NCBI GenBank assembly: GCA_964642305.1
Contig: CAZXOE010000002.1
Location: forward strand, 50,300 to 114,299
Length of the DNA: 64,000 bases
Direction: 5' to 3'
Origin: an uncultured Candidatus Saccharibacteria bacterium
GTDB lineage: Bacteria > Patescibacteriota > Minisyncoccia > Phycocordibacterales > UBA1550
A model generated the notes under the pieces. It was not told the DNA's origin. It did not search any database and saw only the letters and a list, made by a program, of their open reading frames with translations. A program made the position numbers and the translations under genes. Below are positions 2,901-55,144 of this stretch, in pieces. Every line of letters begins with the position of its first letter. Position 1 is the stretch's first letter.

Positions 2901-2948
2901 TGCCAGAAGCTCGCGCACAAGCTGGTTTTCGGGTAGAATGATGAAATA

Positions 2949-3073
2949 TGAATCCCGTTAGAGGTCGCACAGTTTTTGTAGAATGGTGAGAAACGACTAT
3001 ACTGATAGGTGATACATTATTAATGAATACTAATTAACTACGGAAATTTTTAATAATTTCCTACCTCTAACGG
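2949..3073 (+). mobile_element. MITE-like mini-element copy 1 (TIR CCCGTTAGAGGT...ACCTCTAACGGG), ORF-less
   Basis: 12-bp terminal inverted repeats at 2954-2965 and 3063-3074. 9-bp direct repeats GATGAAATA at 2940-2948 and 3074-3082. The right end abuts the pgi ATG. The ends are homologous to the copies at 20241 and 40210. Confidence 0.5.
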
Positions 3074-3074
3074 G

Positions 3075-4379
3075 ATGAAATACCAGGGACACATAAAAGA
3101 AGGAGAGCATATCACTGTGGACAATGCTCGCGTGGAGGAGTATGTCGCAAAAATGCGTCTTGCAATGAGCGACAAAGCTTATTCAACCCCAGAAGCATCT
3201 CTGAGGTTGCCCTTTGACGAGGAGCTTCTAAAAAAATCAAAAAACCTCGCAAGCAAACTCGCGGGGCCAAAGCTCACGTATATTTTAGATATTGGCATCG
3301 GGGGGTCAAACCTCGGCGCAAGGGCGCTCTATGAAGCAACCGCTGGAACTATGGACGCACACACGCCATTTGCGCCAAAAATGCTTTTTGCGGACACATG
3401 CTCACCGGAGCTTCTTTCAGATATCACGGAGCTTCTCTTGAATGAAATAGGTGACAAAGAAGAAATTATAATTATTGTCGCAAGTAAGTCTGGCACAACG
3501 ACAGAAACAATCACAAATGCATCTGTGCTTGTCAGCGCGCTTGAACAAAAATTCGGATCACTCACGGATCGCATTGTGTGCATTACGGATGAGAAGTCGC
3601 CACTTTGGATTATGGCGGAAGATCAAAAATTCCATTTGCTTCCAGTTCCAAAAAATGTAGGTGGACGTTTTTCTGTTTTCTCGCCAGCCGGAGTGTTTCC
3701 GCTTCTGTGTGCTGGTATCCCTGGAGATGCGCTTATGCGTGGAGCGCAGTCCGTTATTCACGACGCTATTGAGAGAGGAGTAGAAAGTAATTCTTTTAAA
3801 TTCGCAAAAGATATTATTTCATGGCACGAACAAGGTAGAATCGTGTTTGATTTTTTTGCGTTTCACCCAGAGCTTGAGTCTCTTGGAAAATGGTATCGTC
3901 AACTTTTTGCGGAAAGTACAGGGAAAGAAAAAACAATTGACGGCGCGCCTACAACGCACCGCATGGTGCCAACTGTATCCATAGGTTCCACCGACCTCCA
4001 TTCTGTTGAACAAATGAACCTTGCGCAACAGAATATCTCAGCGCGTTTTCTTGTTCGCGCGCATGCTCCGCACTGGGAGCACCAGTTTTTGGCAGAGGAT
4101 AAAGTGTTTGCCCCACTCGTGCCAGGTGTTTCTAGGCGCGCTCCATGTGAAATTCTTGATGCCATTTATAAAGGGGTCACTGAAACATACAAGGAACGAG
4201 GAGTTTCATATGGTGAGATTTTGCTAACTGATCTTGATCCAGAGTCGCTTGGAGCGCTTATGCAGTTTATGATGTGTACCACGATGCATCTTGCAAAACT
4301 GCTTAATATCAATGCATTTGACCAGCCAAACGTAGAGGCATACAAGGAGGCTACGAGGAGGATTTTGAGCGGGAAATAA
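3075..4379 (+). CDS. pgi: glucose-6-phosphate isomerase
   Basis: DIGIGGSNLG motif (the PGI GIGGS signature). 434 aa, PGI-like throughout. Confidence 0.75.
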   Translation: MKYQGHIKEGEHITVDNARVEEYVAKMRLAMSDKAYSTPEASLRLPFDEELLKKSKNLASKLAGPKLTYILDIGIGGSNLGARALYEATAGTMDAHTPFAPKMLFADTCSPELLSDITELLLNEIGDKEEIIIIVASKSGTTTETITNASVLVSALEQKFGSLTDRIVCITDEKSPLWIMAEDQKFHLLPVPKNVGGRFSVFSPAGVFPLLCAGIPGDALMRGAQSVIHDAIERGVESNSFKFAKDIISWHEQGRIVFDFFAFHPELESLGKWYRQLFAESTGKEKTIDGAPTTHRMVPTVSIGSTDLHSVEQMNLAQQNISARFLVRAHAPHWEHQFLAEDKVFAPLVPGVSRRAPCEILDAIYKGVTETYKERGVSYGEILLTDLDPESLGALMQFMMCTTMHLAKLLNINAFDQPNVEAYKEATRRILSGK

Positions 4380-20211: not shown

Positions 20212-20240
20212 TTTTACGCAGTCGTGGTATGCTCATTTTT

Positions 20241-20522
20241 ATGAATCCCGTTAGAGACCCCTCAGTTATGTATTACACCTATGTTATCGAGAACGATAAA
20301 GGTACATGGTATACTGGAAGTACGGGAGACCTACGGAAACGCTTTAGAGAGCACAACGAAGGGCAGGCCAACATGGACAAAAGGTAAAGGTTTGTGGAAG
20401 GTTATTTATTACGAAGCATGTCTTAATGAGCAAGATGCTCGGTCGAGAGGGATGTATTTAAAATCAAGAATGGGTAAGCGCTATCTAAAAAGTAGACTAA
20501 AGCGTTTCCTGTCTCTAATGGG
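20241..20522 (+). mobile_element. TIR mini-element copy 2 carrying a GIY-YIG nuclease ORF (TIR CCCGTTAGAGAC...GTCTCTAATGGG)
   Basis: Left end ATGAATCCCGTTAGAG is identical to the first 16 nt of copy 1. Right TIR at 20511-20522 abuts the argS ATG at 20523. Confidence 0.55.
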
Positions 20523-20526
20523 ATGA
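20268..20526 (+). pseudogene. GIY-YIG nuclease (YhbQ/UPF0213-like), interrupted by a +1 frameshift
   Basis: Frame 0 gives MYYTYVIENDKGTWYTGSTGDLRKRFREHNEGQ, the GIY-YIG core. Frame +1 continues TKGKGLWKVIYYEA...YLKSR. A 1-nt shift lies near 20370. The ORF track splits it into 20199..20387 and 20281..20526. Confidence 0.55.
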
Positions 20527-22241
20527 AAGAGAAACTAGAATCAATAGTTGCAGAGGCGCTCAAAGCGCTTGGAATTGAAACTGCGACTGTTACAATAGAA
20601 CGCCCCGCCGACATGGCGCACGGCGACTATTCCACCAACGCGGCTCTGGTTTACGGAAAGAAAGCAGGCATTCCACCGCGCGAGTTTGCGGAGAAACTAT
20701 TAGAAAAAATACGAGATGCATCACCATATGACATAGCAAAAATTGAAATCGCCGGCGCTGGGTTCGTCAATTTTTTCATGACCGCTGACGCGATAAGGGA
20801 AGAAAATAAAAAAGAAAAATGCTCTCTCGTCACTAGGTATTCAAAAAAGAATATTCTTGTGGAGCATTCTTCCCCAAATATCTTTAAACCGTTTCATATC
20901 GGGCATTTAATGAACAACATTGTTGGTGAGTTTGTCACAAGGGCAACAATAATAGGTGGCGGAAATGTCACGACTATATCTTTTCCATCAGATGTTTCCC
21001 TCGGGATTGCAAAAGCGGTGTTTGTCCTTCTTGAGGACAAAAAAGAAGGCAGAGATGTATTTGCGCTTTCAGATGAAGAAAAAATAACCGCATTTGGCGA
21101 AGCATACCGAAGGGGTGTGGAGTATTTTGACACGCGCCCCGATGAGAATGAAAAGGCAAAAGAGATAGCGCGCATCATTTATGACAAAGACCATTCATCA
21201 GAAACTCGCGCGTTTTTTGAACGCGCAAAAGAAATCAACACCGCATATCTTATAAAAATAATAAAGGAGCTTGGTTCTGTTATAGACGAGATAATTTATG
21301 AATCTGAGGCAGGTGAAATAGGGCAAGAGATTGTAGAGAAAAACACGGGCGAGGGAAAAGTGTTTGCAAAAAGTGAAGGCGCAGTGGTGTATGTCCCTGA
21401 TCCCGCGCGCAAGGATTTGCACACGCAGGTCTTTATCAACAGCGAGGGGCATCCGACATATGAAGCAAAAGATCTCGGCCTCATTGATTTGAAGTTCTCA
21501 AAATTTGCGCCCGATATTTCGTATTTTGTCACCGACACGGAGCAGGCATCGCATTTTAGGGTTGTGCTCGATGCCGCAGGGAAGCTTGGTGGTGTGTGGC
21601 CGTCGCGCGTAGAAAAAAGCATTCACATCCCGCATGGAAGAATGCTTTTCAAGGGGCAAAAAATGTCGAGCCGTCTTGGGGGTGTGCCGATCGCTCTTGA
21701 TGTTGTTGCAGTGGTGGAGGAAGAAGTAAGAGAGAGAGCAGGGGAGAAAATTGCGCACCTCGGTGCTCTAGAGAAAATGAAGCTGGAGCGTGAGATTGCG
21801 CTTTCTTCCCTCCGTGTGGCGGTCCTTCGTTCAAAGCCAGGTATTAATATTAATTTTGACCCCGAAACATCACTCTCGTTTGAAGGGGACTCAGGTCCGT
21901 ATCTTTTGTATACACACGCACGAACCGCGTCGCTTCTTGAAAAAGGGAAAGAAAAAGGATATGAGCCAACGTTTGCATCTGTGCCAGTAACACTTTTAGA
22001 AAGAGAGCTAGCGCAGTATGAGTTTGTTTTAGGGCAGGCGGTCACCGATCTTCATCCACAAAAATTAGTGACGTATCTTTTTGAAGTAGCGCAACTATTT
22101 AATGGTTTTTATGGAAGTACGCAAATCATCACAGAAGATAAAGAAACATCCGAGCATTACCTCGCCATAGTAAAGCGGCTCAAAGCAGTCCTCAAGGAAG
22201 GCCTCTGGGTGCTCGGCATTTCCGCACCGGAGAAGATGTAG
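20523..22241 (+). CDS. argS: arginyl-tRNA synthetase
   Basis: HIGH motif FHIGHLMN. Class-I ArgRS-like over 572 aa. Confidence 0.9.
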   Translation: MKEKLESIVAEALKALGIETATVTIERPADMAHGDYSTNAALVYGKKAGIPPREFAEKLLEKIRDASPYDIAKIEIAGAGFVNFFMTADAIREENKKEKCSLVTRYSKKNILVEHSSPNIFKPFHIGHLMNNIVGEFVTRATIIGGGNVTTISFPSDVSLGIAKAVFVLLEDKKEGRDVFALSDEEKITAFGEAYRRGVEYFDTRPDENEKAKEIARIIYDKDHSSETRAFFERAKEINTAYLIKIIKELGSVIDEIIYESEAGEIGQEIVEKNTGEGKVFAKSEGAVVYVPDPARKDLHTQVFINSEGHPTYEAKDLGLIDLKFSKFAPDISYFVTDTEQASHFRVVLDAAGKLGGVWPSRVEKSIHIPHGRMLFKGQKMSSRLGGVPIALDVVAVVEEEVRERAGEKIAHLGALEKMKLEREIALSSLRVAVLRSKPGININFDPETSLSFEGDSGPYLLYTHARTASLLEKGKEKGYEPTFASVPVTLLERELAQYEFVLGQAVTDLHPQKLVTYLFEVAQLFNGFYGSTQIITEDKETSEHYLAIVKRLKAVLKEGLWVLGISAPEKM

Positions 22242-22269: not shown

Positions 22270-23005
22270 AAAGGGGTCAGGTACCTTTGATTTGTGATAT
22301 AGTCTTAGTATATAATACAAACATGCCACGACTACCACGCGTTGATGTTGGAGGAGAAATTTATCACGTCATTAATCGTGCAAATGCACGGTTGCCAATT
22401 TTTTTTAAAGAAGACGACTATAAACTTTTTGAGACAATTATTGAGGAAGCGCAGATTAAATTTGGTATGAGGATTCTCGCGTATTGTTTTATGCCAAATC
22501 ATTTTCATCTTGTATTACATCCAAACAGTGACGGTGATTTGCAGAAGTTTATGCAATGGCTCACGCTTACTCATACTCAACGCTGGCACACAAAAAATGG
22601 AACGACAGGAACTGGACATCTATATCAAGGACGATACAAGTCTTTTCTTGTCCAAGGCGACAGGCACTTACTTACTATTATTCGCTATGTAGAGAGAAAT
22701 CCACTGCGGGCAAAATTGGTCAAGAAAATTGAAAACTGGAATTTCTCAAGCCTCGCTAGGCGACTTTCTGGCAATCCTAAAAAGAATAAATTACTTGAAA
22801 AGTGGCCGATTGAAATGCCAAAGAATTATCTAGCCTTTGTGAACGAACCTATGAATAAAAATGAAGAAGATGTAATCAGGTACTCTGTTAATAGAAGCAA
22901 GCCTTTTGGATCGGACACATGGAGCAGTAGAATGATCGATAAGCACGGGCTAGAGGCGACGATGCGCAACAGGGGAAGACAAATCAAAGGTACCTGACCC
23001 CTTTG
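22270..23005 (+). mobile_element. IS200-like/RAYT unit bounded by 20-bp inverted repeats (AAAGGGGTCAGGTACCTTTG / CAAAGGTACCTGACCCCTTTG)
   Basis: The IRs at 22270-22289 and 22985-23005 are perfect reverse complements. The right IR overlaps the stop codon. Confidence 0.55.
22323..22997 (+). CDS. IS200/IS605-family Y1 (HUH) transposase, REP-associated tyrosine transposase-like
   Basis: HUH motif MPNHFHLVL and a catalytic Tyr region RYVERNPLRA. The TATATAATACAAAC promoter is fused to the ATG. Confidence 0.7.
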   Translation: MPRLPRVDVGGEIYHVINRANARLPIFFKEDDYKLFETIIEEAQIKFGMRILAYCFMPNHFHLVLHPNSDGDLQKFMQWLTLTHTQRWHTKNGTTGTGHLYQGRYKSFLVQGDRHLLTIIRYVERNPLRAKLVKKIENWNFSSLARRLSGNPKKNKLLEKWPIEMPKNYLAFVNEPMNKNEEDVIRYSVNRSKPFGSDTWSSRMIDKHGLEATMRNRGRQIKGT

Positions 23006-23616: not shown

Positions 23617-26600
23617 ATGAAAAATATTTTCCATCGTTCCGCCGAGTTTATTGCAAAACACAAACACCATCACCATATCGCGCTCGCTACGCTCGCGCTC
23701 GTTATAGCAGGCGCAGGAGTGTACACATATCGGCACGAAATAGCGCAGGCGGCAACATATACTTTTACACAGTCCTCGTGGGCAGGCGGAGCTACTGCGA
23801 ACACCGCAGTGCACCCGACCAATCAATCAAGCTGGACGCAATATTCCGCAAATTCGGCAGATATAACTGCTGATGCAAGTAGTGTGAGACTAAACACGGT
23901 AAGCTACTCCTTTACAGATGACGGCACTAGCACTACCACCAGCCCAATAGCCACAGGTGGCGGTTTTTCAAGTGGTGCAAATTCCTCAACGGCGATTTCC
24001 GGTTCAGGCACAGGCGCGAGCGTGGGCTTGATGTTGAATGAATATGGCTGGGCAGTGGGAAATAGTGGAACCATACGAAAAACTGCCAACAGCGGGGAAA
24101 CTTGGTCTACCCAAACAAGTGGGACAACCAATGGTCTTAATAACCTCTACTTCATCGACTCCAATATCGGCTGGGCGGTGGGAGGTAGCGGAGTCATACG
24201 AAAAACCATAGACGGTGGTACAAACTGGCCTACCCAAACAAGCAGCGGGATAACCGCAAATGGTGTCCACTTCATCGACGCCAATACCGGCTGGGTGGTG
24301 GGAGGTGACGGAACTAATGGAATTATACGAAAAACCATCAACGGCGGAACAAGCTGGTCTACCCAACTAACGATAGGAGGCTATATGGATTTTTTCGATG
24401 TTCATTTCATTGACGCTAATACCGGATGGGCAGTGGGAAATCAAGCAACGATAAAAAAAACTATAGACGGTGGTACAACTTGGTCTACCCAAACAAGTGC
24501 GAGAAGTGCAGAACTTTACGCCGTCCACTTCATCGATACCAACACCGGCTGGGTGGTGGGAGCTTACGGAATACAAAAAACCATAGACGGTGGTACAACT
24601 TGGTCTACCCAAACAAGCGAGACACAATGGCTTCGCGGTGTCCACTTCATCGACGCCAATATCGGCTGGGCGGTGGGAGGTAGCGGAGTCATACGAAAAA
24701 CCATAGACGGTGGTACAAACTGGCCTACCCAAACAAGCGGGACAACCCAACAACTTAGAGGCGTCCACTTCACTGACGCCAATACCGGCTGGGCGGTAGG
24801 AGCAGCCGGCACCATACTCAAAACCACCAACGGCGGTACTACATGGACAGCTCAAACAAGCGGGACGACTCAGAATCTTAATAACCTCTACTTCGTATCT
24901 TATTATTCCAACCCCGGCACCTTCACTTCTGCAGATATTGACCTCGGGGCGAATGTTATCTTTAGTGGAAAAACATTAGATTGGACGGAAAGTTTGAACG
25001 GTGGCGATATTCAAATTCAAATGAGAAGCGCAACTACGCAAGGAGGGCTTTCTGGAGCGACATGGTACGGTCCGACTGGTACAGGGGATTATTATACAGC
25101 AAGTGGCGGTAGTAGTATAAACACTGTTCACAATGGTCATAGGTGGATTCAATACCGAGCAACTTTAACTACTCCTAATACAGCCCTTACCCCCACACTT
25201 GATTCTGTAACGATAAATTACACGCAATACGCAAGCGCGGGCGATTTAACTTCTTCTAAATATGATGTCGGGTCAGATACTCTTATTTCTAGACTTAGCT
25301 GGGTTGCGTCTACTACAACCACAGAAACTGTCGCTTTCCAGGTGCAGTCCTCACCGGACAACTCCACATGGACAGGTTGGTGCGGATTTAGCGAGACAGG
25401 CCCAACGTGCGATGGGTCAAACTATTTCACAGACGCGCACAATGGCGTAGCACTTGGCACTAGTCACCCGCTTCGTTCAGGCACTGGAGCAGGTGCTGAC
25501 AGATATTTCCAATATAAAGTATTCCTTGTTTCAGGCGGAGCTGTGACGCCAGAGCTAACATCTGTTACGGTGCAATATGTGATTAACGCGCCACCGGATG
25601 TTCAAAATGTCACTGCTGTGCAAAATGCAGATGGGACTGTGACGGTGAATTTTGATATGCGTGATACCGACACCAATGATGCTGGTGCCGCCACTCCAGG
25701 AAAAGTTATTTCTACACTGCAGTACAATAATGCGGCATGTGGTGCTGGACCTTCATGGGCTGATGCGGCCGCGGTTACTGGAGCTGTCGGCGCGAATACA
25801 ACCATTACTGCCACGTATCCAACAAGCGCGAGCTCCACTATTACATGGACTCCTTCTACCGACTGGTCGGATAAGTACTGCGCAACACAGCAAGTTCGTA
25901 TAAAATTGAATGACTCTGAGGGTGCAAATAATCTTGGGTATAGCACCGCGGCATCGTTTTTGCTCGATACCACAGCGCCTGTTGTAGCGTCAACCGGCGG
26001 TTTCCTTGTGGATTCCTCTGTAGGAGGAGCTGGACTTGCGGGCATAAAACTTACCGCAACAGATGACAGCACTATGCAGTATAGACTTTGCAATAATTCA
26101 GACTTTACAGCAGACGGATTGAACTCGGGTGCTGGTGCCTGCACAGAATGGAGCTCTGCTTCTGCGTCCGTTGACCTTACTACATCAGCAAATTCGTGGA
26201 ACACAGCTCTAGGCGCGGATGGAACAGAAACTGTATATATGCAAGTGCGTGATTTGTATGGCAACGTGACATCTAGGACAGCTAGCGCGCCAACGGTACC
26301 ACCATCGTTTATTGCAACTGACACAACAAACCTCAACAGCGACACGTACAGAGAGTTTTTGAGCTGGGGAAAAGCTTCATCAACTACATTTGGATCATAT
26401 AAGGTCTATTACAACACCACAGGCTCTGGTGCTAGCTATTCATTGCTTGGCACAGTTACAGATGTAAACCAAAATTACTATACACACACGATAACAACAG
26501 CAACAAGCTCAACACACTACTACAAGATGGTTACTGTTAGCGCGAACGGCGATATTTCAGAATTTACATCCGTAAAATCAGATGTCCCTGACGGCTCGGG

Positions 26601-29025
26601 AAGCACTGATGTTACGGCGCCGTATATACCATACGCCGGCATCGCGGTGTCGTCTGTGAGAAACACGTCTGCAAACATAACATTTAGCACGTATACAGAT
26701 GTTTCTTTGGCAGAAGGCGAGCTCGCAACCTCTACTGTGCGATACGCGAGCTATACTGGGAATGCGCCAACATCCTGCCCAACCACGTCTTCAACAAACT
26801 CAAACACATATGTTGTGAACCACAGCGTATATCTTACAGATCTAACTCCTTCTACCAGCTATGTGTTCTGTGTTCTTGCAAAAGATATTTCTGGGAATGT
26901 GAGTACGGCATCATATGTGGCGGAGTCTGGCGGAACATTTACAACCATAGGTGGCCCAAGAATAACAGGAGTGACACAAAGAGAAATTACAGACACATCC
27001 GCAACTATTTTCTGGAACACAGACACAAGCTCTGATTCAAAGGTGTATTTTTCAACTAGCGCGGGTGGCGTAAACGGAGCGACCCCAGTTACGGGAGCCG
27101 TTGTTACCACGTCTGGAACAAACGAAAATGGCACATTTTATCAGCATCAAATAGGGCTCACTGGTTTGACTCCCGGCCTAACATATTATTACAAGGTTTC
27201 CTCAACAGACGCTCTAGACTCAGAGTTGGTAGCAATAGATGACAATACTGGGCAATATTACAGTTTTGTAACCTTGAAGGACACAACCCCACCAATCATT
27301 ATGGGTACTTCTACGCCAGTGCTAGCGCCAACTGCCGCTGTTATTGTGTGGCAGACGGACGAAATGGCAGACTCGCAAGTATTTTATGATACCGTGTCGC
27401 ACGGAACAGACACATCCCTTTATCCAAAATACACAGCGACACAAAGCTACCCTACAAGCGTAAAGTCTATTTACCATGTAATGACACTGTCCTCAGACAC
27501 AGCAAATTCTGGAAGTGGTGGTGGAACGAACGCTCTTATAAAGGAGACACAGTATTACTATGTTGTGAAATCAACCGATTCAGCTGGCAACTCTTCTGTT
27601 TCGACGGGGACATTTACGACACCTGCAGACGGTAACGTTACTATTACTGTAGTGAGAGTAACCCAAGCATCAGAGGGTACACCACCAGACACAGCAGGCC
27701 CTGTTTTGTCTAGTGTGAAGGTCAGTGATATTACTCCGTTTGGAGCTACAGTTTCGTTTGATACGAATGAGGATGCTGTAAGTTTTGTTGAATACGGCAA
27801 AAGCGCGTCATTTGGCGATAGCGCTGGTAGCAAGACGTGGAGTAAAACACACTCCATAAAACTTCGCGGGTTAACTCTTGGCACTGAGTACTATATAAAA
27901 GTTTCTGCTGTAGATAAAGCAGGGAACACGGGTACAGGAGGTGAACAAACATTCAAAACATCGTTCCTTTCGGAGGATTTGAAAGACCTCACGAAGATAG
28001 AAAATATTGAGCAATTCCAAAAGGAGATTGAGGCAACGATTGAGTCAATCCTCCCGTCGCTCGTGCCTCCATTTATCACAAAGCCAGTCATTAGTGATAT
28101 CACAGAAGGTAGTGCAAAGATTTCATTTAGAACAAACATAAAAGCATTTCCAGTGGTTGTGTTTGCAGAGGATGGCGTATACGATGAAACAAAAGAAAAT
28201 CCGTATACAGGAGAGATGTCAGACACAACAGAAAAAGCTACGAGCCACGAGCTCGCCCTCACTGGTCTCAAGGGTAACACAAAGTATCATATTCAGGCGC
28301 GAGGGTTCTCTCTACCAAAGGTAATTGGCAAGTCAGCAGACGTGACATTTATCACAAAGGCGTCAAAGATTGCGGGTTCTATCGTGGAGCGCAAAAAAGA
28401 TTCGTTTACAGTGGTATGGACCACGGAACAGCCAACGTCATCAATTGTTGAGTTTAAAGATTTGAAGCGTGGCATAACAGGTCGTAAGACAGATGATGCA
28501 AAAAAGAAATCTCACTCTATGAAGATTGAAAACCTTCCTTCTGGAACTGCGTATGAAGTAAATCTTTCTGGAGTGACGGAGCAGGGGAATGTCGCAGAGG
28601 CTGGGTCGCCAATTTCTGTAACAACATCAACAGATACCACACCGCCAGTTATTTCAGGATTTAAAGTGGACAATGCTCTTGTTCCAGGCAGAACAGACAG
28701 AATCCAGACTATTGTGTCGTGGGTTACTGATGAGCCTTCAGACTCTACAGTTTACTATCAAGAAGGCGCTGGTACTCCGGGCGATACAGAGGAGCTTGCA
28801 AACAAAAATGAAGTGTTAGATTCGTATATTACGAACCACAGCGTTATTCTTCCAAGCTTGAAGCCAGGCACTATTTACCGATTAAAGGTTACATCAAGCG
28901 ATGACTCTGGAAACCTTGGTTCATTTGGCCCTCGCACAGTCATTACTCCAAAGCAGACTGAGTCCATCACCGATATCATTTTCAAGAACTTTGAAGACAG
29001 CTTCAAGTTCCTCCAGAAGATATAA
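23617..29025 (+). CDS. giant (1802 aa) membrane-anchored cell-surface protein: N-terminal TM, ~8 BNR/Ycf48-like beta-propeller blades, multiple FN3-like domains
   Basis: Repeated GW(A/V)VG..G.I.KT.DGGT.W..QTSGTT..L..VHF.D.N.GW blades. Later recurring ...YYYKVS..D..GN / TEYYIKVSAVDKAGN FN3-like beta-sandwich signatures. Confidence 0.65.
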   Translation: MKNIFHRSAEFIAKHKHHHHIALATLALVIAGAGVYTYRHEIAQAATYTFTQSSWAGGATANTAVHPTNQSSWTQYSANSADITADASSVRLNTVSYSFTDDGTSTTTSPIATGGGFSSGANSSTAISGSGTGASVGLMLNEYGWAVGNSGTIRKTANSGETWSTQTSGTTNGLNNLYFIDSNIGWAVGGSGVIRKTIDGGTNWPTQTSSGITANGVHFIDANTGWVVGGDGTNGIIRKTINGGTSWSTQLTIGGYMDFFDVHFIDANTGWAVGNQATIKKTIDGGTTWSTQTSARSAELYAVHFIDTNTGWVVGAYGIQKTIDGGTTWSTQTSETQWLRGVHFIDANIGWAVGGSGVIRKTIDGGTNWPTQTSGTTQQLRGVHFTDANTGWAVGAAGTILKTTNGGTTWTAQTSGTTQNLNNLYFVSYYSNPGTFTSADIDLGANVIFSGKTLDWTESLNGGDIQIQMRSATTQGGLSGATWYGPTGTGDYYTASGGSSINTVHNGHRWIQYRATLTTPNTALTPTLDSVTINYTQYASAGDLTSSKYDVGSDTLISRLSWVASTTTTETVAFQVQSSPDNSTWTGWCGFSETGPTCDGSNYFTDAHNGVALGTSHPLRSGTGAGADRYFQYKVFLVSGGAVTPELTSVTVQYVINAPPDVQNVTAVQNADGTVTVNFDMRDTDTNDAGAATPGKVISTLQYNNAACGAGPSWADAAAVTGAVGANTTITATYPTSASSTITWTPSTDWSDKYCATQQVRIKLNDSEGANNLGYSTAASFLLDTTAPVVASTGGFLVDSSVGGAGLAGIKLTATDDSTMQYRLCNNSDFTADGLNSGAGACTEWSSASASVDLTTSANSWNTALGADGTETVYMQVRDLYGNVTSRTASAPTVPPSFIATDTTNLNSDTYREFLSWGKASSTTFGSYKVYYNTTGSGASYSLLGTVTDVNQNYYTHTITTATSSTHYYKMVTVSANGDISEFTSVKSDVPDGSGSTDVTAPYIPYAGIAVSSVRNTSANITFSTYTDVSLAEGELATSTVRYASYTGNAPTSCPTTSSTNSNTYVVNHSVYLTDLTPSTSYVFCVLAKDISGNVSTASYVAESGGTFTTIGGPRITGVTQREITDTSATIFWNTDTSSDSKVYFSTSAGGVNGATPVTGAVVTTSGTNENGTFYQHQIGLTGLTPGLTYYYKVSSTDALDSELVAIDDNTGQYYSFVTLKDTTPPIIMGTSTPVLAPTAAVIVWQTDEMADSQVFYDTVSHGTDTSLYPKYTATQSYPTSVKSIYHVMTLSSDTANSGSGGGTNALIKETQYYYVVKSTDSAGNSSVSTGTFTTPADGNVTITVVRVTQASEGTPPDTAGPVLSSVKVSDITPFGATVSFDTNEDAVSFVEYGKSASFGDSAGSKTWSKTHSIKLRGLTLGTEYYIKVSAVDKAGNTGTGGEQTFKTSFLSEDLKDLTKIENIEQFQKEIEATIESILPSLVPPFITKPVISDITEGSAKISFRTNIKAFPVVVFAEDGVYDETKENPYTGEMSDTTEKATSHELALTGLKGNTKYHIQARGFSLPKVIGKSADVTFITKASKIAGSIVERKKDSFTVVWTTEQPTSSIVEFKDLKRGITGRKTDDAKKKSHSMKIENLPSGTAYEVNLSGVTEQGNVAEAGSPISVTTSTDTTPPVISGFKVDNALVPGRTDRIQTIVSWVTDEPSDSTVYYQEGAGTPGDTEELANKNEVLDSYITNHSVILPSLKPGTIYRLKVTSSDDSGNLGSFGPRTVITPKQTESITDIIFKNFEDSFKFLQKI
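24040..24870 (+). repeat. near-identical ~120-135-bp nucleotide repeats encoding the propeller blades
   Basis: Strings such as ccatagacggtggtacaacttggtctacccaaacaagc recur several times; this is the source of many spurious antisense ORFs. Confidence 0.7.
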
Positions 29026-29116: not shown

Positions 29117-29185
29117 GGCGTTTCCTATTCTGTCTGTCCTATTACCTATTTACATCTATAGATGTAAATAGGTAATAGGACAGGA
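29117..29185. repeat. palindrome containing CCTATTTACATCTATAGATGTAAATAGG
   Basis: Imperfect ~69-bp palindrome whose 28-bp core recurs at 29779-29808. Confidence 0.6.
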
Positions 29186-29199
29186 AACGCTGGAAGTCT

Positions 29200-29763
29200 T
29201 TAAAGATTAAAATATTTTCGTACCCGAGACTCGTTTTCTATATCGCTAGCAGTAATAAGAAAAATATGTTCTCTCACATTAAAACAATCCCCTAAAAAAT
29301 CAACTTCTTTTTTGCATTCGAACGGTGTTATGAAAACAGATTTTTGGTATGGGTAGCAATTTGCTTTTTTTAACAGTTTATTTAATGCTTGCCTTGAGAA
29401 CTTCTTTTCTTCTGGTATATCAAACATTATTATTCGCCATTTTTTGTCCCACTTTTCGTGTTTATCAGACCTGTCTAATTTTAGATTATTTAGTCGAGCT
29501 TCTTTCCTGCCTTTGTCAGTAAGCGCAACATAAATCTCACCTCCACGATTCTCCATTTTTATTAAACCTTTATTTTTTAAACTTCCTGCTGAGCGTCTTA
29601 TTTTTAGTTTTATTTTCCCATCTTCAATATCAATATATTTGAGCAACTGCGCCAGGTTTGGAAGCGCGAGAATCATAACAAAAGCCCCAGTCGTTAGCAG
29701 AGAGGTTAGGATAATTTTTGAAATCTCACCTTTATCGTATTTTTGTGTATGGCTATTATTCAC
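29200..29763 (-). CDS. PaaX-like protein (winged-helix N-terminus, Cas2-fold C-terminal domain), N-terminal TM
   Basis: KWDKKWRIIMFDIPEEKK...QKSVFITP matches the PaaX C-domain / Cas2-like fold pattern (W.G.W..V.FDIPE....R.....L...G....SV). No cas genes or array nearby. Confidence 0.4.
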   Translation of the reverse strand: MNNSHTQKYDKGEISKIILTSLLTTGAFVMILALPNLAQLLKYIDIEDGKIKLKIRRSAGSLKNKGLIKMENRGGEIYVALTDKGRKEARLNNLKLDRSDKHEKWDKKWRIIMFDIPEEKKFSRQALNKLLKKANCYPYQKSVFITPFECKKEVDFLGDCFNVREHIFLITASDIENESRVRKYFNL

Positions 29764-29778
29764 TGTTAAAAGTATACC

Positions 29779-29808
29779 TATTTACATCTATAGATGTAAA
29801 TAGGTATA
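29779..29808. repeat. 28-bp perfect palindrome CCTATTTACATCTATAGATGTAAATAGG (second copy)
   Basis: Identical core to 29140-29170. The pair brackets the PaaX-like gene. Confidence 0.6.
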
Positions 29809-40188: not shown

Positions 40189-40209
40189 ATTGCAGTCGTG
40201 GTTACTTGT

Positions 40210-40327
40210 CCCGTTAGAGATAACTCAGTTATGTTTTCGGCGATAATGGGATATACTGAGATTACTATTATTAGAAGTTAAATATAATTAAGATAAGGAA
40301 ATTTAATAATTTCCTATCGCTAACGGG
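40210..40327 (+). mobile_element. TIR mini-element copy 3 (CCCGTTAGAGATA...TATCGCTAACGGG), ORF-less deletion derivative
   Basis: Left end shares cccgttagaga..ctcagttatg with copy 2. Right end shares ggaaatttaataatttcctaNNNctaacggg with copy 1. It abuts the metG ATG. Confidence 0.5.
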
Positions 40328-41896
40328 ATGACAGAAAAAAAATTCTACATCACTACGCCTATTTTTTACGCGAATGCGGAGCTCCATTTAGGGCACACAT
40401 ATACGCTTGTTTTGTCAGACGTTTTAGCGCGATATCATCGCTTTGTAGGAGACAATACTTTTTTCCTAACAGGCTCCGATGAGCATGGCGACAAAATTGT
40501 GCGTTCTGCGCAAAAGGAAGGCATGGGGCCTCAGGCGTTTGTAAATATAAATGTCGCAAAAATGGAGGTGCTTATTCAGGAGCTTGGTATATCAAATGAT
40601 CTATTTATTCGCACCTCCGATCAAGAGCATCATTGGTCAGGAGCAAAGAAGCTGTGGCACGCGCTTGAGGAAGCTGGTGATATTTACAGGGGCACATACA
40701 AAGGGCTTTACTGTGTTGGGTGCGAGGCATTCATTACCGAAAAAGAATTAGTGAGTGGCAAATGTCCTTTGCATGACGCTCCACCAGAGCATATTGAAGA
40801 AGAAAATTATTTTTTCAAACTTTCAAAATATGGCCCTGAAATAAAACGATTACTTGAAAGTGGAGAATTAAAAATTACTCCCCATTCACGAGTAAATGAA
40901 ATAGTTTCACTCATCTCTGGTGCGAACGGAGAGAGTGCTTTGGTAGATGTGAGTATCTCTCGCCCAGAGCGCGCGATACCGTGGGGGATACCTGCGCCAA
41001 GTGACCCAACACAGCTAATGTATGTGTGGTGCGACGCGCTTTCAAACTACATTTCTGCTCTTGGCTACGGTACAGACAATGATGAAAATTTCAAAACTTT
41101 TTGGCCAGCGGATATTCAGGTGTTGGGCAAAGACATACTTCGTTTCCACGCGCTCCTTTGGCCAGCATTTTTATTGTCAGCGAAGATTCCGCTACCACGC
41201 GAGCTTTTGGTCCATGGGTTTGTCAATTCAGGAGGGAAGAAGATGTCTAAGTCCTTGGGTAACGTGTTGAGTCCGGGTGAATTTATTTCAGAGTATGGCA
41301 GGGACGCGCTTCGGTATTACCTTACGAGAGAGGTAACTCCCGTGGATGATTGGGATTTAACCCGAGAAAAATTTAAAGAAGTTTACAATGCAAACCTGGC
41401 AAATGGCTTGGGGAACCTTGTATCACGCACTTTAAAAATGGCTGAATCGTATTTTGGAGGAGTGGTAAAAGGTGACGCGACACGTGTACCTCCTATTAAA
41501 ACAAAAATGTCCGATGTGGAAACGTTTGATGAAATTGCAGGTATTAATATTCCATATATTATTACAAATGACATTTTGCCACGTTACCATAAACATATGA
41601 GCGCGAATGAGATAAATAGAGCAGCGGACGTAATTTGGGAGCTCATTGGGCATCTAGATCAATTTGTTACAGATTATGAGCCATTTAAGCTTGTGAAGAC
41701 AGACAAGGAGTCTGCGGAGGCTGTAATTTGGTGTCTTTTGTACGGACTTCGCGAGGTTGGCCAAATGCTTACGCCAATGATGCCAGATACAGCGCAAAGG
41801 ATTATAACGCTTGTTGGCGCATCCGATGTCAAGGCTGATGAAATGGTCTTTAATGCAAAAGCACTCACCGAACCGCTTTTTATGCGCAAAGAGTAG
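40328..41896 (+). CDS. metG: methionyl-tRNA synthetase
   Basis: HIGH motif (ELHLGHTY) and KMSKS. Confidence 0.9.
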   Translation: MTEKKFYITTPIFYANAELHLGHTYTLVLSDVLARYHRFVGDNTFFLTGSDEHGDKIVRSAQKEGMGPQAFVNINVAKMEVLIQELGISNDLFIRTSDQEHHWSGAKKLWHALEEAGDIYRGTYKGLYCVGCEAFITEKELVSGKCPLHDAPPEHIEEENYFFKLSKYGPEIKRLLESGELKITPHSRVNEIVSLISGANGESALVDVSISRPERAIPWGIPAPSDPTQLMYVWCDALSNYISALGYGTDNDENFKTFWPADIQVLGKDILRFHALLWPAFLLSAKIPLPRELLVHGFVNSGGKKMSKSLGNVLSPGEFISEYGRDALRYYLTREVTPVDDWDLTREKFKEVYNANLANGLGNLVSRTLKMAESYFGGVVKGDATRVPPIKTKMSDVETFDEIAGINIPYIITNDILPRYHKHMSANEINRAADVIWELIGHLDQFVTDYEPFKLVKTDKESAEAVIWCLLYGLREVGQMLTPMMPDTAQRIITLVGASDVKADEMVFNAKALTEPLFMRKE

Positions 41897-42019
41897 TTTG
41901 CCTATTCTTTTTGTCGTTGCGAGGCACGAAGCAATCTACGGGTTAATTCTGGCTTGCTTCTGAACTAGCAAGTTCACGTCTTGGACGCAACCCACGCAAT
42001 GACAGGAATTAAAAACACC

Positions 42020-43907: not shown

Positions 43908-44051
43908 AAAATCAATGAGCGAAGCGAATATGATTTTCTTATCCGCCTAAGTTTTCGAATTAACAAATTCGTGGCTCTGCCATAAACTTTTATTTGAAAA
44001 ATTTTGGTGGGTGGGGAGGTCCAGTCTAGCCATATCAATTAAAAACAAACT

Positions 44052-54124: not shown

Positions 54125-54318
54125 TTTTACTAGGGACTAAGTAACAACGAAAAGAGTCTTAGTCTCAAATTAGGTCAATGCGTCGCTTCAGAGAAATTAT
54201 CTCGAACGAGCTAAACCCAAAACGAAACTAACCTCCCTGCCCGCCACTGCCTGTCGCTCCTGAATTAGCAAATTCACGTCTTGGACGCAAATGAGCAGTT
54301 AGGCGATGGCAGGCGGGA

Positions 54319-54357
54319 ATTCAGAAAAAGACCCCTTTCTCTTACGAGAAAGGGGTC
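54319..54357 (+). terminator. intrinsic terminator
   Basis: gacccctttctc-ttac-gagaaaggggtc with flanking A and T runs. Confidence 0.6.
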
Positions 54358-54375
54358 TTTTTCGTGCTCAAATCC

Positions 54376-54411
54376 CCAAGCTCCCCAAGGCCCGGCCTAT
54401 GTACATAGGCC
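54376..54411. repeat. 36-bp perfect palindrome CCAAGGCCCGGCCTATGTACATAGGCCGGGCCTTGG (REP-like, left of RAYT #2)
   Basis: Read directly; identical to 55109-55144. Confidence 0.85.
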
Positions 54412-54434
54412 GGGCCTTGGTATATAATACAAGC

Positions 54435-55088
54435 ATGAGGAAGCTCAATTTTTCTATTCATGAATACTACCATCTCTACAGTCGTGGTACCGACAAACGT
54501 ATTATATTTAGCGATGAAGAAGACAAGCAAAGATTTTTACATCTCTTGTATCTCTGTAATACTGACAGCAGTCTAATATTTAGAGAGATACCCATAGGCC
54601 GGGCCTATGAAGAGAGAAAAGGAGATACTTTGGTTAATATTGGAGCATATTGCATGATGCCAAATCACTTCCACCTACTTGTTAGAGAGAAGAAGGATGG
54701 TGGAATCACGAAATTTATGGGTAAATTACTAACATCGTATTCAATGTACTTTAACAAGAAATATAAGCGTACTGGGACTTTGTTTGAGAGTAGATTTAAG
54801 GCAAAGCATGCTAATGATGATAAATACTTGAAGTATTTATTTGCTTATATTCATCTAAACCCAGTTAAGATTATTGATCCAAAATGGAAGGAAAATGGGA
54901 TTAAGGATCGAGATAGTGCTGAGGAATATCTAGAAAGTTATCAATATTCGAGTTACGCGGATTACGTAGGCGACCATCGTAAGGAGAGCAACATCCTTAA
55001 TAAGCGAGTGTTTCCAGAGTATTTTTCAAAGCAGCAGGAATTTAAAGAATTCATAAAAGAGTGGCTATCCTATGGCAATATAGTGTAG
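54435..55088 (+). CDS. IS200-like Y1 (HUH) transposase / REP-associated tyrosine transposase (RAYT)
   Basis: HUH motif MPNHFHLLV and a Tyr region YIHLNPVK. The TATATAATACAAGC promoter is fused to the ATG. The ORF track's upstream extension is discounted. Confidence 0.7.
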   Translation: MRKLNFSIHEYYHLYSRGTDKRIIFSDEEDKQRFLHLLYLCNTDSSLIFREIPIGRAYEERKGDTLVNIGAYCMMPNHFHLLVREKKDGGITKFMGKLLTSYSMYFNKKYKRTGTLFESRFKAKHANDDKYLKYLFAYIHLNPVKIIDPKWKENGIKDRDSAEEYLESYQYSSYADYVGDHRKESNILNKRVFPEYFSKQQEFKEFIKEWLSYGNIV

Positions 55089-55108
55089 CCCCGAGGACTA
55101 CCAAACCA

Positions 55109-55144
55109 CCAAGGCCCGGCCTATGTACATAGGCCGGGCCTTGG
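55109..55144. repeat. 36-bp perfect palindrome, identical second copy (right of RAYT #2)
   Basis: Read directly. Confidence 0.85.

Follow-up and report, generated by a model that had tools for sequence, protein, structure and literature searches.

Small inverted-repeat elements with a minimal GIY-YIG nuclease gene at start codons in Patescibacteria: a probable mobile family that duplicates the start codon of the host gene

We analysed a stretch of 64,000 nt from an uncultured Candidatus Saccharibacteria bacterium (contig CAZXOE010000002.1, positions 50,300 to 114,299; hereafter the window, to which all unprefixed coordinates refer), where three copies of a short element bounded by inverted repeats adjoin the start codons of pgi, argS and metG (copies 1, 2 and 3, respectively). 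The argS copy contains a decayed gene for a small GIY-YIG nuclease, and the other two contain no open reading frame (ORF). We interpret these copies as members of a family of small selfish mobile elements, comprising an autonomous, nuclease-coding form and ORF-less forms, that insert on start codons and duplicate them; the probability of this reading is, by our estimate, about 0.7. As far as sequence comparison goes, the duplication varying with the site and the clean empty sites in relatives establish that the feature is a mobile element whose target-site duplication (TSD) copies the host start codon.

All three copies share the ends T-CCCGTTAGAG…CTCTAACGGG, each adjoining the ATG of a housekeeping gene. 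The parts of the argS copy are listed below, P1 being the helix formed by the terminal arms, and P2 a second helix within the coding sequence.

20225..20233, plus strand: extended -10 box TGGTATGCT, promoter-like host sequence outside the element, with the left ATG 7 nt downstream
20241..20245, plus strand: left TSD, ATGAA, the duplicated argS start codon (alignment of empty and filled sites, TSD statistics, left-flank consensus)
20246..20258, plus strand: P1 5' arm, T-CCCGTTAGAGAC, pairing with 20511-20523
20268..20526, plus strand: GIY-YIG nuclease pseudogene (Pfam, alignment to the intact locus L001, protein alignment, three assemblies)
20335..20347, plus strand: P2 5' strand GGAAACGCTTTAG, codons LRKRF (RNAalifold, pair counts with shuffle and slid controls)
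20497..20509, plus strand: P2 3' strand CTAAAGCGTTTCC, codons LKRFL, 1 nt from the P1 3' arm (RNAalifold, pair counts)
20511..20522, plus strand: P1 3' arm GTCTCTAATGGG, also coding for the final residues LSLMG
20523..22241, plus strand: argS (ArgS homologs, Pfam families at the syntenic locus, empty sites)

The arms CCCGTTAGAGAC (20247-20258) and GTCTCTAATGGG (20511-20522), which had been recognised in a sequence-only reading of the window, are indeed complementary at 11 of 12 positions, the exception being a G·T pair. The pairing in fact extends to 14 bp (20245-20258 with 20511-20524) via T20246·A20523 and A20245·T20524, the A and T of the argS ATG taking part in it. The span enclosed by the arms is 276-277 nt, and not 282 bp as given in that reading, which was right in placing the end of the right repeat exactly at the argS ATG (20522 | 20523). 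The stop codon TGA of the nuclease ORF overlaps this ATG to form ATGA, and the right TSD (20523-20527, ATGAA) comprises the first five bases of argS. The left ATGAA is in frame with the GIY-YIG ORF (MNPVRDPSV-MYYTYV...).

The copies at pgi and metG, about 120 nt each, were found by a repeat search of the window.

2948..2952, plus strand: left TSD of copy 1, ATGAA (flank comparison, TSD statistics)
2953..3074, plus strand: ORF-less copy 1, P1 arms 2953-2965 / 3063-3075, flush with the pgi start at 3075
3042-3048 with 3055-3061, plus strand: hairpin of copy 1 equivalent to P2
40204-40208, plus strand: left flank of copy 3, ACTTG, a decayed duplication
40209..40327, plus strand: ORF-less copy 3, P1 arms 40209-40221 / 40316-40328, flush with the metG start at 40328
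40297-40303 with 40308-40314, plus strand: hairpin of copy 3 equivalent to P2

The gene following copy 1 encodes a protein of 434 aa from the PGI family. Both copies fold into a closing stem with a hairpin beside its 3' strand (z-scores near -4.7), and both retain the spacer/ATG region and the two helices of the long copy, together with what is left of its ORF. Thus, the three copies form one family, as had been supposed from their common ends, and those at pgi and metG are non-autonomous relics.

If the unit were a vertically inherited 5' untranslated region (UTR), a chance match or an assembly artefact, the case for mobility would fall. The arm taken by itself offers some ground for such doubt, as the 12-mer is only weakly enriched in the window (7 matches with at most 2 mismatches vs. 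2.4 expected). Chance is excluded by the arrangement, in which all three arm pairs directly adjoin a start codon; more than 200 further elements were found outside the window. Identical sequence in independent assemblies, hundreds of elements in unrelated samples, strong covariation and the existence of empty alleles all speak against this group of explanations, whose probability we consider negligible.

Empty argS sites were found in three related genomes (L089, L087 and L088). The empty allele in L089 reads …GTCGTGGTATGCTCAATTTAATT|ATGAAAGAGAAA…, and the filled allele, in the window and in L001, reads …GTCGTGGTATGCTCATTT(T/A)(T/A)T|ATGAA|T-CCCG…CGGG|ATGAAAGAGAAA…; in L086, a full element is placed before tmk instead of argS. 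The metG site is empty in L082 and L083 (MetG 88% and 85% identical), where 12-13 nt separate the upstream AI-2E transporter gene from the metG ATG, and it carries a decayed element in L084 and L085, flanked in L085 by ACGAG / ATGAG. Hence, given the empty alleles at both genes, the unit is an insertion, as originally proposed, rather than a conserved 5' UTR.

The upstream regions of copies 2 and 3 have GCAGTCGTGGT in common. For copy 2, we rejected it as a part of the element, since it is present in the empty argS alleles too; at the empty metG sites there is a stretch only loosely similar to it. Probably, GCAGTCGTGGT is a host promoter-like sequence, although for copy 3 this is our inference.

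The ORF from 20268 reads MYYTYVIENDKGTWYTGSTGDLRKRFREHNEGQ, and the +1 frame goes on …TWTKGKGLWKVIYYEA…KRFLSLMG, followed by TGA; both frames had been quoted correctly in the sequence-only reading. The GIY-YIG identity proposed there is upheld by the match of the repaired ORF to PF01541 (E = 9.9e-12, 45.4 bits, cut-off 22.6), and the N-terminal fragment alone also matches this profile (E = 9.9e-9). The closest solved structures are those of UPF0213 proteins (1ZG2, 1YWL; best E = 4.8e-10), Slx1 being next. Judging by these similarities, the domain encoded by the argS copy belongs to the stand-alone UPF0213/Slx1-like GIY-YIG type. Prokaryotic stand-alone domains of this type were assigned to the Slx1 family by Dunin-Horkawicz et al. 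(PMC1564403).

In a related groundwater Patescibacteria genome (L001/L002), an intact gene of 85 codons likewise lies between tmk and argS, and its stop codon also overlaps the argS ATG as ATGA. The window and L001 loci are 90% identical over the alignment, and a single extra A in the window, at 20365, accounts for the frameshift that had been put near 20370. As the extra A and the identical sequence are seen in three independent assemblies from other samples (L211-L213), the frameshift is not an assembly error. In the protein alignment, Gly in the window copy replaces a near-invariant Glu of the family, which is the catalytic Glu of GIY-YIG enzymes, and two more changes affect conserved positions (G67R, T84M). 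An intact frame with the catalytic Glu is seen in L001 and in the family proteins P0001-P0120, and both features are lost in the window copy; by its sequence, this is an autonomous copy in decay, with a dead nuclease gene. The neighbourhood of the element also differs between the two genomes: L001 has two tandem thymidylate kinase genes and a spacer of 274 nt before the element (L001:4361-5726), and the window has one tmk and a spacer of 29 nt.

With the repaired protein as a query, at least 2670 protein clusters were retrieved, the best being 65-87% identical, 85-95 aa long and mostly from Patescibacteria. A scan of genomes, one per species, listed at least 550 relatives, again mostly in Patescibacteria, with protein identity of 58-87%; the best 80 of these come mainly from Patescibacteria, and the others from Omnitrophota, Planctomycetota, Nitrospirota, Desulfobacterota, Elusimicrobiota and one Woesearchaeota bin. 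GIY-YIG genes have been reported among those transferred out of Patescibacteria (PMC12455944). The family proteins end in a near-invariant C-terminus, …GMGKRYLKNRLKRFLSLTG, and approximately half of them are annotated with an N-terminal extension, MNPVRDxSV; read as protein, the inverted repeat yields LSLTG* (CTCTAACGGGATGA) and MNPVRD (ATGAATCCCGTTAGAGAY). In nearly every locus, approximately 10 nt separate the left arm from the ORF, whose last codons are formed by the right arm. The autonomous form, of about 277 nt, thus consists of T, the P1 5' arm, a 10-nt spacer and the 85-codon nuclease ORF, in which the final six codons are the P1 3' arm and codons 22-26 pair with codons 76-80 as P2. 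The ends come in two variants: T…A, with TGA (ATGA) after it, and C…G, with TAA in that place.

The non-autonomous form, of about 120 nt, comprises P1, a P2-type hairpin beside the 3' arm and a variable filler. Such ORF-less copies are common both in the flanks of the loci and in metagenomes, where a scan for perfect arms 85-115 nt apart yielded at least 120 stretches. They form recurring subfamilies, e.g. …ACGGAAATnnnnATTTCCTA, or those with P1 lengthened by CGCGATCGC, and therefore propagate as lineages. Tandem arrays exist as well, with junctions CGGG-ATGAA-TCCCG, which fit a second insertion into the regenerated target. A phage vector was rejected, since 2.9 million viral contigs yielded a single relative, 37% identical, and not one arm pair. 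Hence, the further copies anticipated by the sequence-only reading exist in both genomes and metagenomes, and its surmise that the arrangement had not been described agrees with our searches, as neither Rfam nor the open-access full-text literature yielded a match or a description of such elements. Two loci adjoin RNA genes: a C…G-type ORF-less element begins 1 nt after a tRNA gene (L113:2224-2409), and four ORF-less copies and one full copy lie within about 1.6 kb downstream of a tmRNA gene in a Nitrospirota bin (L045:1481-3003).

In ATG-type elements, the flanking 5-mers are identical in 83 of 133 cases (shuffle mean 46, not reached in any of 5000 shuffles). The tendency is stronger still where the right flank is other than ATGAA, as 17 of 42 such pairs are identical, compared with 3.25 expected (0/5000 shuffles); the duplicated 5-mers besides ATGAA are ATGGA, ATGCG, ATGTA, ATGAG, ATGGG and ATGTC. 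Upstream of the left hexamer ATGAAT nothing is conserved (n = 52). The C…G variant has flanks GTNNA, and since their first position matches in 41% of cases, a 4-bp TNNA duplication is favoured. For the ATG type, a 5-bp duplication (ATGAA) and a 4-bp one (TGAA, in an element with ends T…A) give the same sequence and are indistinguishable. Together, the alignments suggest a common scheme with ends T…A or C…G and a 4-bp TNNA duplication. Thus, two hallmarks of transposons with terminal inverted repeats (TIRs) and TSDs, the duplication varying with the site and the empty orthologous sites, are both present. One contig of 7 kb contains three elements (L194:1835-4294), two of which (184 and 185 nt) are 96% identical and precede two paralogous ORFs of about 450 aa with far less similar 5' ends, which points to recent transposition or gene conversion.

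These data also bear on the possibility that we deal with a free-standing homing endonuclease gene, which spreads by break repair between homologous loci and whose repeats form an mRNA structure limiting nuclease translation. The gene in question has a GIY-YIG catalytic domain, and phage Seg/Mob genes sit, as it does, between conserved genes and overlap the downstream gene; the tmk–argS position is occupied also in L001, and ribosome-binding-site hairpins of homing endonucleases are known. However, insertions of the present family precede many non-homologous genes, the TSD varies by site, ORF-less derivatives that keep the conserved ends are scattered (the metagenomes contain at least 120 such stretches), and tandem arrays occur. 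The protein, moreover, has 85 aa and no DNA-binding domain, and the NCBIfam profile TIGR01453 scores 21-31 bits at a cut-off of 56, covering the catalytic part alone; on the same score a group I intron endonuclease was rejected. All in all, homing seems unlikely.

We then come to the repeats as a structure. In 90 elements, the terminal inverted repeats are 13-14 bp long; pairing between the arms is 96-100% at positions -1 to +11 and falls to the chance level at +12, which gives the stem a sharp inner boundary at its 12th inner pair. Such pairing was not attained in any of 2000 shuffles, and 98% of the P1 cells are paired. Covariation is seen at positions -1 (T-A/C-G), 9 (G-C/A-T), 10 (A-T/G-C/C-G) and 11 (T-A/C-G/A-T). 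From 70 aligned full-length elements, RNAalifold independently predicted P1 and the second helix, P2, a 13-bp pairing inside the coding sequence between the LRKRF codons and the LKRFL codons about 160 nt downstream, whose 3' strand ends 1 nt before that of P1. In the P1+P2 structure 97.3% of the cells are paired, and 133 cells show a double change, compared with 33.8 in shuffles (0/500 reach the observed value) and 7-18 with slid partners. Many changes in P2 fall on third codon positions of both sides and are synonymous, and in the ORF-less copies P2 becomes a local hairpin with variable sequence and retained pairing. Thus, the inverted repeats claimed initially are present at both ends, but they are better described as a base-paired stem with compensatory changes, accompanied by a second helix in the ORF.

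A structure of this kind might not be primarily selfish: the P1/P2 fold could serve as a host cis-regulatory leader, e.g. an RNase III site giving leaderless mRNA, with the small protein as its trans partner. The exact end of the stem at the AUG, the compensatory changes that keep pairing even at synonymous sites, the tolerance of sense-strand G·U pairs in P2 and the persistence of ORF-less copies before essential genes would all suit such a leader, as would the non-intron insertions with GIY-YIG ORFs described in rRNA genes of the candidate phyla radiation (CPR) (PMC11270868). Among 20 other loci of the present family none has the element inside an rRNA gene. The same genes, however, have empty sites in close relatives, the genes served are functionally incoherent, pseudogenisation and decay are evident, and the TSDs and tandem arrays are signatures of insertion. 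Nor does any Rfam family match: at gathering thresholds the whole window yielded nothing, intron models included, and copy 1 at E<=1 gave one chance-level match to a snoRNA, so that a T-box, a riboswitch or another known RNA leader was rejected. We consider a host leader quite improbable.

Another enzyme could be responsible for the mobility of these units, for instance the IS200-like Y1 (HUH) transposases of the window, the GIY-YIG protein then being a passenger or an accessory (stabilising or addiction) factor. The window has two Y1_Tnp genes flanked by perfect palindromes, one directly after argS, and HUH enzymes work on hairpins in DNA and are responsible for the movement of REP/REPIN doublets, whereas strand-transfer chemistry is not known for GIY-YIG enzymes. 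Against this, the GIY-YIG ORF comes with these arms in different phyla, and its coding sequence includes the right arm and P2; the palindromes around the Y1 genes show no sequence relationship to the arms; and the elements have a TSD, whereas insertion of the IS200/IS605 type is not known to make one. Hence, we find mobilisation by a Y1 enzyme improbable, and retain the family of selfish, nuclease-coding elements as the preferred interpretation.

The placement on start codons holds throughout the family. In nearly all full-length ATG-type elements a long ORF begins at the base after the right arm, and among the ORF-less metagenome elements with an ATG directly after the right arm, 44 of 50 start a long ORF there. 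A Pfam scan of ten downstream ORFs gave family matches for nine and none for one; the families are pgi, pyrG, topA (twice), class I aminoacyl-tRNA synthetase (aaRS), RNase J-like (twice), an ATP synthase subunit and a solute-binding protein, and in several ORFs (pyrG, topA, class I aaRS) the domain begins within the first ten residues (at residues 1-9). The window contains 576 ATGA sites, 22 of them being starts of its 43 long genes, and all three elements are situated on such a start. The orientation is always co-directional with the gene. The position immediately 5' of start codons, as it had been described, is thus nearly always flush and involves diverse housekeeping genes, with the refinement that the start codon itself is duplicated.

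A motif similar to the Shine–Dalgarno (SD) sequence precedes just 9 of the 43 window genes, and TGnTAnnnT ending 4-13 nt before the ATG precedes 10 of them, compared with 1.3-2.2% at control positions. As -10-like boxes lie near the ATG and SD motifs are few, leaderless transcripts or very short leaders seem common, and these counts suggest that they are widespread in this Yonathbacteria-like genome. In the empty allele, the TGGTATGCT box precedes the argS ATG by 10 nt, and its sequence is found directly upstream of argS in the empty alleles of both L089 and L087; by the extended -10 argument it may be a promoter. In 18 of 28 ATG-type elements (one third expected) the left ATG is in frame with, and open into, the nuclease ORF, and the internal ATG is missing in L007, L032 and L066.

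These observations could be combined as follows. Insertion duplicates 4-5 bp, (A)TGNN, mostly ATGAA, which in Patescibacteria is the start codon of the host gene. The left copy of the start codon would be served by the host promoter, and translation would enter the element in the nuclease frame. At the other end, ribosomes terminating at the TGA that overlaps the right ATG (ATGA) could re-initiate on the host gene, and translation of the P1 5' arm would open the stem, in which the A and U of the host AUG are otherwise paired. Given the duplication of the start codon, the hand-over at ATGA and the opening of the stem, insertion would be nearly harmless; for the ORF-less copies the stem-melting part alone would apply. 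As for the mobility itself, a structure-specific nuclease of the Slx1 type might act on the folded P1/P2 junction, as Slx1 enzymes cut branched DNA. Stacking of P1 and P2 would bring both junctions between the element and its flanks to one branch point, letting a very small enzyme act on both ends, and the nuclease could mobilise ORF-less copies in trans. Host repair or another enzyme may be needed for the joining of DNA.

We also considered a stronger statement, which seems possible but on balance doubtful: that these are the first prokaryotic transposable elements with a minimal Slx1-like GIY-YIG nuclease as the sole protein, the enzyme recognising the folded P1/P2 junction of single-stranded DNA or of the transcript and targeting leaderless start codons (possibly a melted junction between the promoter and the transcription start site), so that the element captures the promoter and the start codon and returns translation via ATGA.

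Several points weigh against the proposed interpretation. We know of no GIY-YIG enzyme for which strand transfer or DNA joining has been established, and the 85-aa domain comes without a DNA-binding module, hence the link between the nuclease and mobility is just an association. Sense-strand G·U pairs exceed A·C in P2 (19 vs. 5), and the trend is opposite in P1 (3 vs. 7), hence sense RNA and single-stranded DNA are indistinguishable as the folded molecule. The apparent specificity for start codons could stem entirely from purifying selection acting on insertions into a short TGAA/TNNA target. The filled and empty metG alleles do not track the similarity of MetG, which would require precise excision or repeated insertion, and the 96%-identical pair in L194 was rejected as proof of recent transposition, since the paralogous genes behind the two copies leave room for gene conversion. 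No intact copy of the element is present among the three copies of the 64-kb window. A scan of the left flank for a canonical two-hexamer sigma-70 promoter called none. Finally, the ORF-less copies have no short upstream ORF ending at the ATGA (in copy 1 the frame of the left ATG reads MNPVRGRTVFVEW*), so translational coupling by overlap is inapplicable there.

If the nuclease does drive mobility, the family would represent an element class whose catalytic domain has no known role in TIR/TSD transposition, and with about 277 nt it would rank among the smallest autonomous elements; were the stronger statement true as well, it would imply a new transposition chemistry together with a new strategy of harmless insertion. 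The cost of insertion would be met in a new way, with the start codon duplicated, one copy used by the element and the other returned to the host. The family also accounts for the many ORFs of 85-95 aa annotated as 'GIY-YIG' or 'excinuclease ABC subunit C' in Patescibacteria genomes, and for structured leaders of about 120 nt before essential genes. With proteins 58-87% identical across phyla, it provides a marker for recent gene flow, and the exact geometry of the stem relative to the AUG offers a handle on leaderless or SD-less initiation in CPR bacteria.

The insertions have consequences for annotation as well, accounting for spurious N-terminal extensions (MNPVRD… on the nuclease, and the MetG calls). 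Gene callers that begin at ATGs within or next to the element append MNPVRDxSV to the nuclease (94-95-aa calls, e.g. P0004), and MetG calls are extended by 10 aa into the element remnant (L084:1501-1530, L085:1501-1530). The ArgS call P0251 (590 aa) has 18 residues more than the window ArgS; the extra length of ArgS in L089, where the site is empty (L089:1501-1554), lies beyond the shared ATGAAAGAG start and is not a start-site extension. Those start-site extensions that do exist are systematic annotation artefacts of these insertions.

Other repeats of the window include three units in which a gene lies among palindromes. The first has an IS200-like Y1 transposase ORF (22287-22997; PF01797, E = 5e-18) inside a perfect 26-nt inverted repeat (22270-22295 / 22979-23004), and this gene downstream of argS keeps the same place in L211-L213. 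The second is a Y1_Tnp-like ORF (54306-55088, E = 2.6e-10) with identical 37-nt palindromes at 54385-54421 and 55108-55144, and the third is a PaaX_M/Cas2-like ORF (29200-29763, minus strand) between two perfect 32-nt palindromes (29143-29174 / 29775-29806). A 35-nt repeat, GCTTCTGAACTAGCAAGTTCACGTCTTGGACGCAA, occurs at 41956-41990 and 54256-54290 with 91% identity, in both cases at the 5' end of an ORF: one copy overlaps the TTG start of a TatD ORF (41981), and the other lies 16 nt before the Y1_Tnp ATG (54306). Looser related repeats are found at 43949, 50229 and 50633. An ORF of 1802 aa (23617-29025) contains tandem repeats of about 120 nt (about 40 aa), with at least 7 units around 24046-24861.

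Compared with known systems, the family resembles prokaryotic TIR/TSD transposons and their miniature inverted-repeat derivatives, MITEs (Correia/CREE of Neisseria, IS630-derived), in its short TIRs and short TSD, in internally deleted copies of about 100-150 nt that outnumber the coding copy, and in co-transcription with neighbouring genes as a stem-loop. It differs from them in that the sole protein is an 85-aa GIY-YIG and not a DDE, HUH or Ser/Tyr recombinase or Cas1; in that the repeats covary like a helix and a second helix lies inside the ORF; and in the target, which is a start codon, always co-directional with the gene. The likeness to REPIN-RAYT consists in a small enzyme gene bracketed by inverted repeat copies and in dispersed enzyme-less doublets of about 100 nt, forming long hairpins with compensatory changes. 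Here, however, the flanked gene is GIY-YIG rather than Y1 HUH (RAYT), there is a TSD, the sites are start codons rather than 3' intergenic regions, and one of the arms is coding.

Free-standing GIY-YIG homing endonucleases (T4 Seg, the I-TevI family) share the catalytic domain, the gene wedged between host genes, the overlap with the downstream gene and the structured control of their own translation. They, however, join this domain to a DNA-binding one in proteins of about 200 aa or more, and have a single homing site in homologous genes and no TSD, whereas those described here have 85-95 aa and no DNA-binding domain, occur at many non-homologous targets with TIR and TSD, and have ORF-less derivatives. 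UPF0213/Slx1-like proteins (YhbQ, BH0048 = 1ZG2, EF2693 = 1YWL) represent the same minimal domain, but to our knowledge have not been described as mobile or flanked by repeats, and it is in the present clade that the C-terminus GMGKRYLKNRLKRFLSLTG doubles as the 3' strands of P2 and P1. Intervening sequences of rRNA, IStrons and the T4 gene 60/mobE cassette are likewise selfish insertions that keep the invaded gene expressed, but they differ in that no ribozyme or bypass signal was found here by Rfam; the device proposed for the present family, start-codon duplication with ATGA coupling, we have not seen described. Thus, although lacking the defining enzyme of both, the element is closest in its workings to TIR/TSD transposons with MITE derivatives and to the REPIN-RAYT system.

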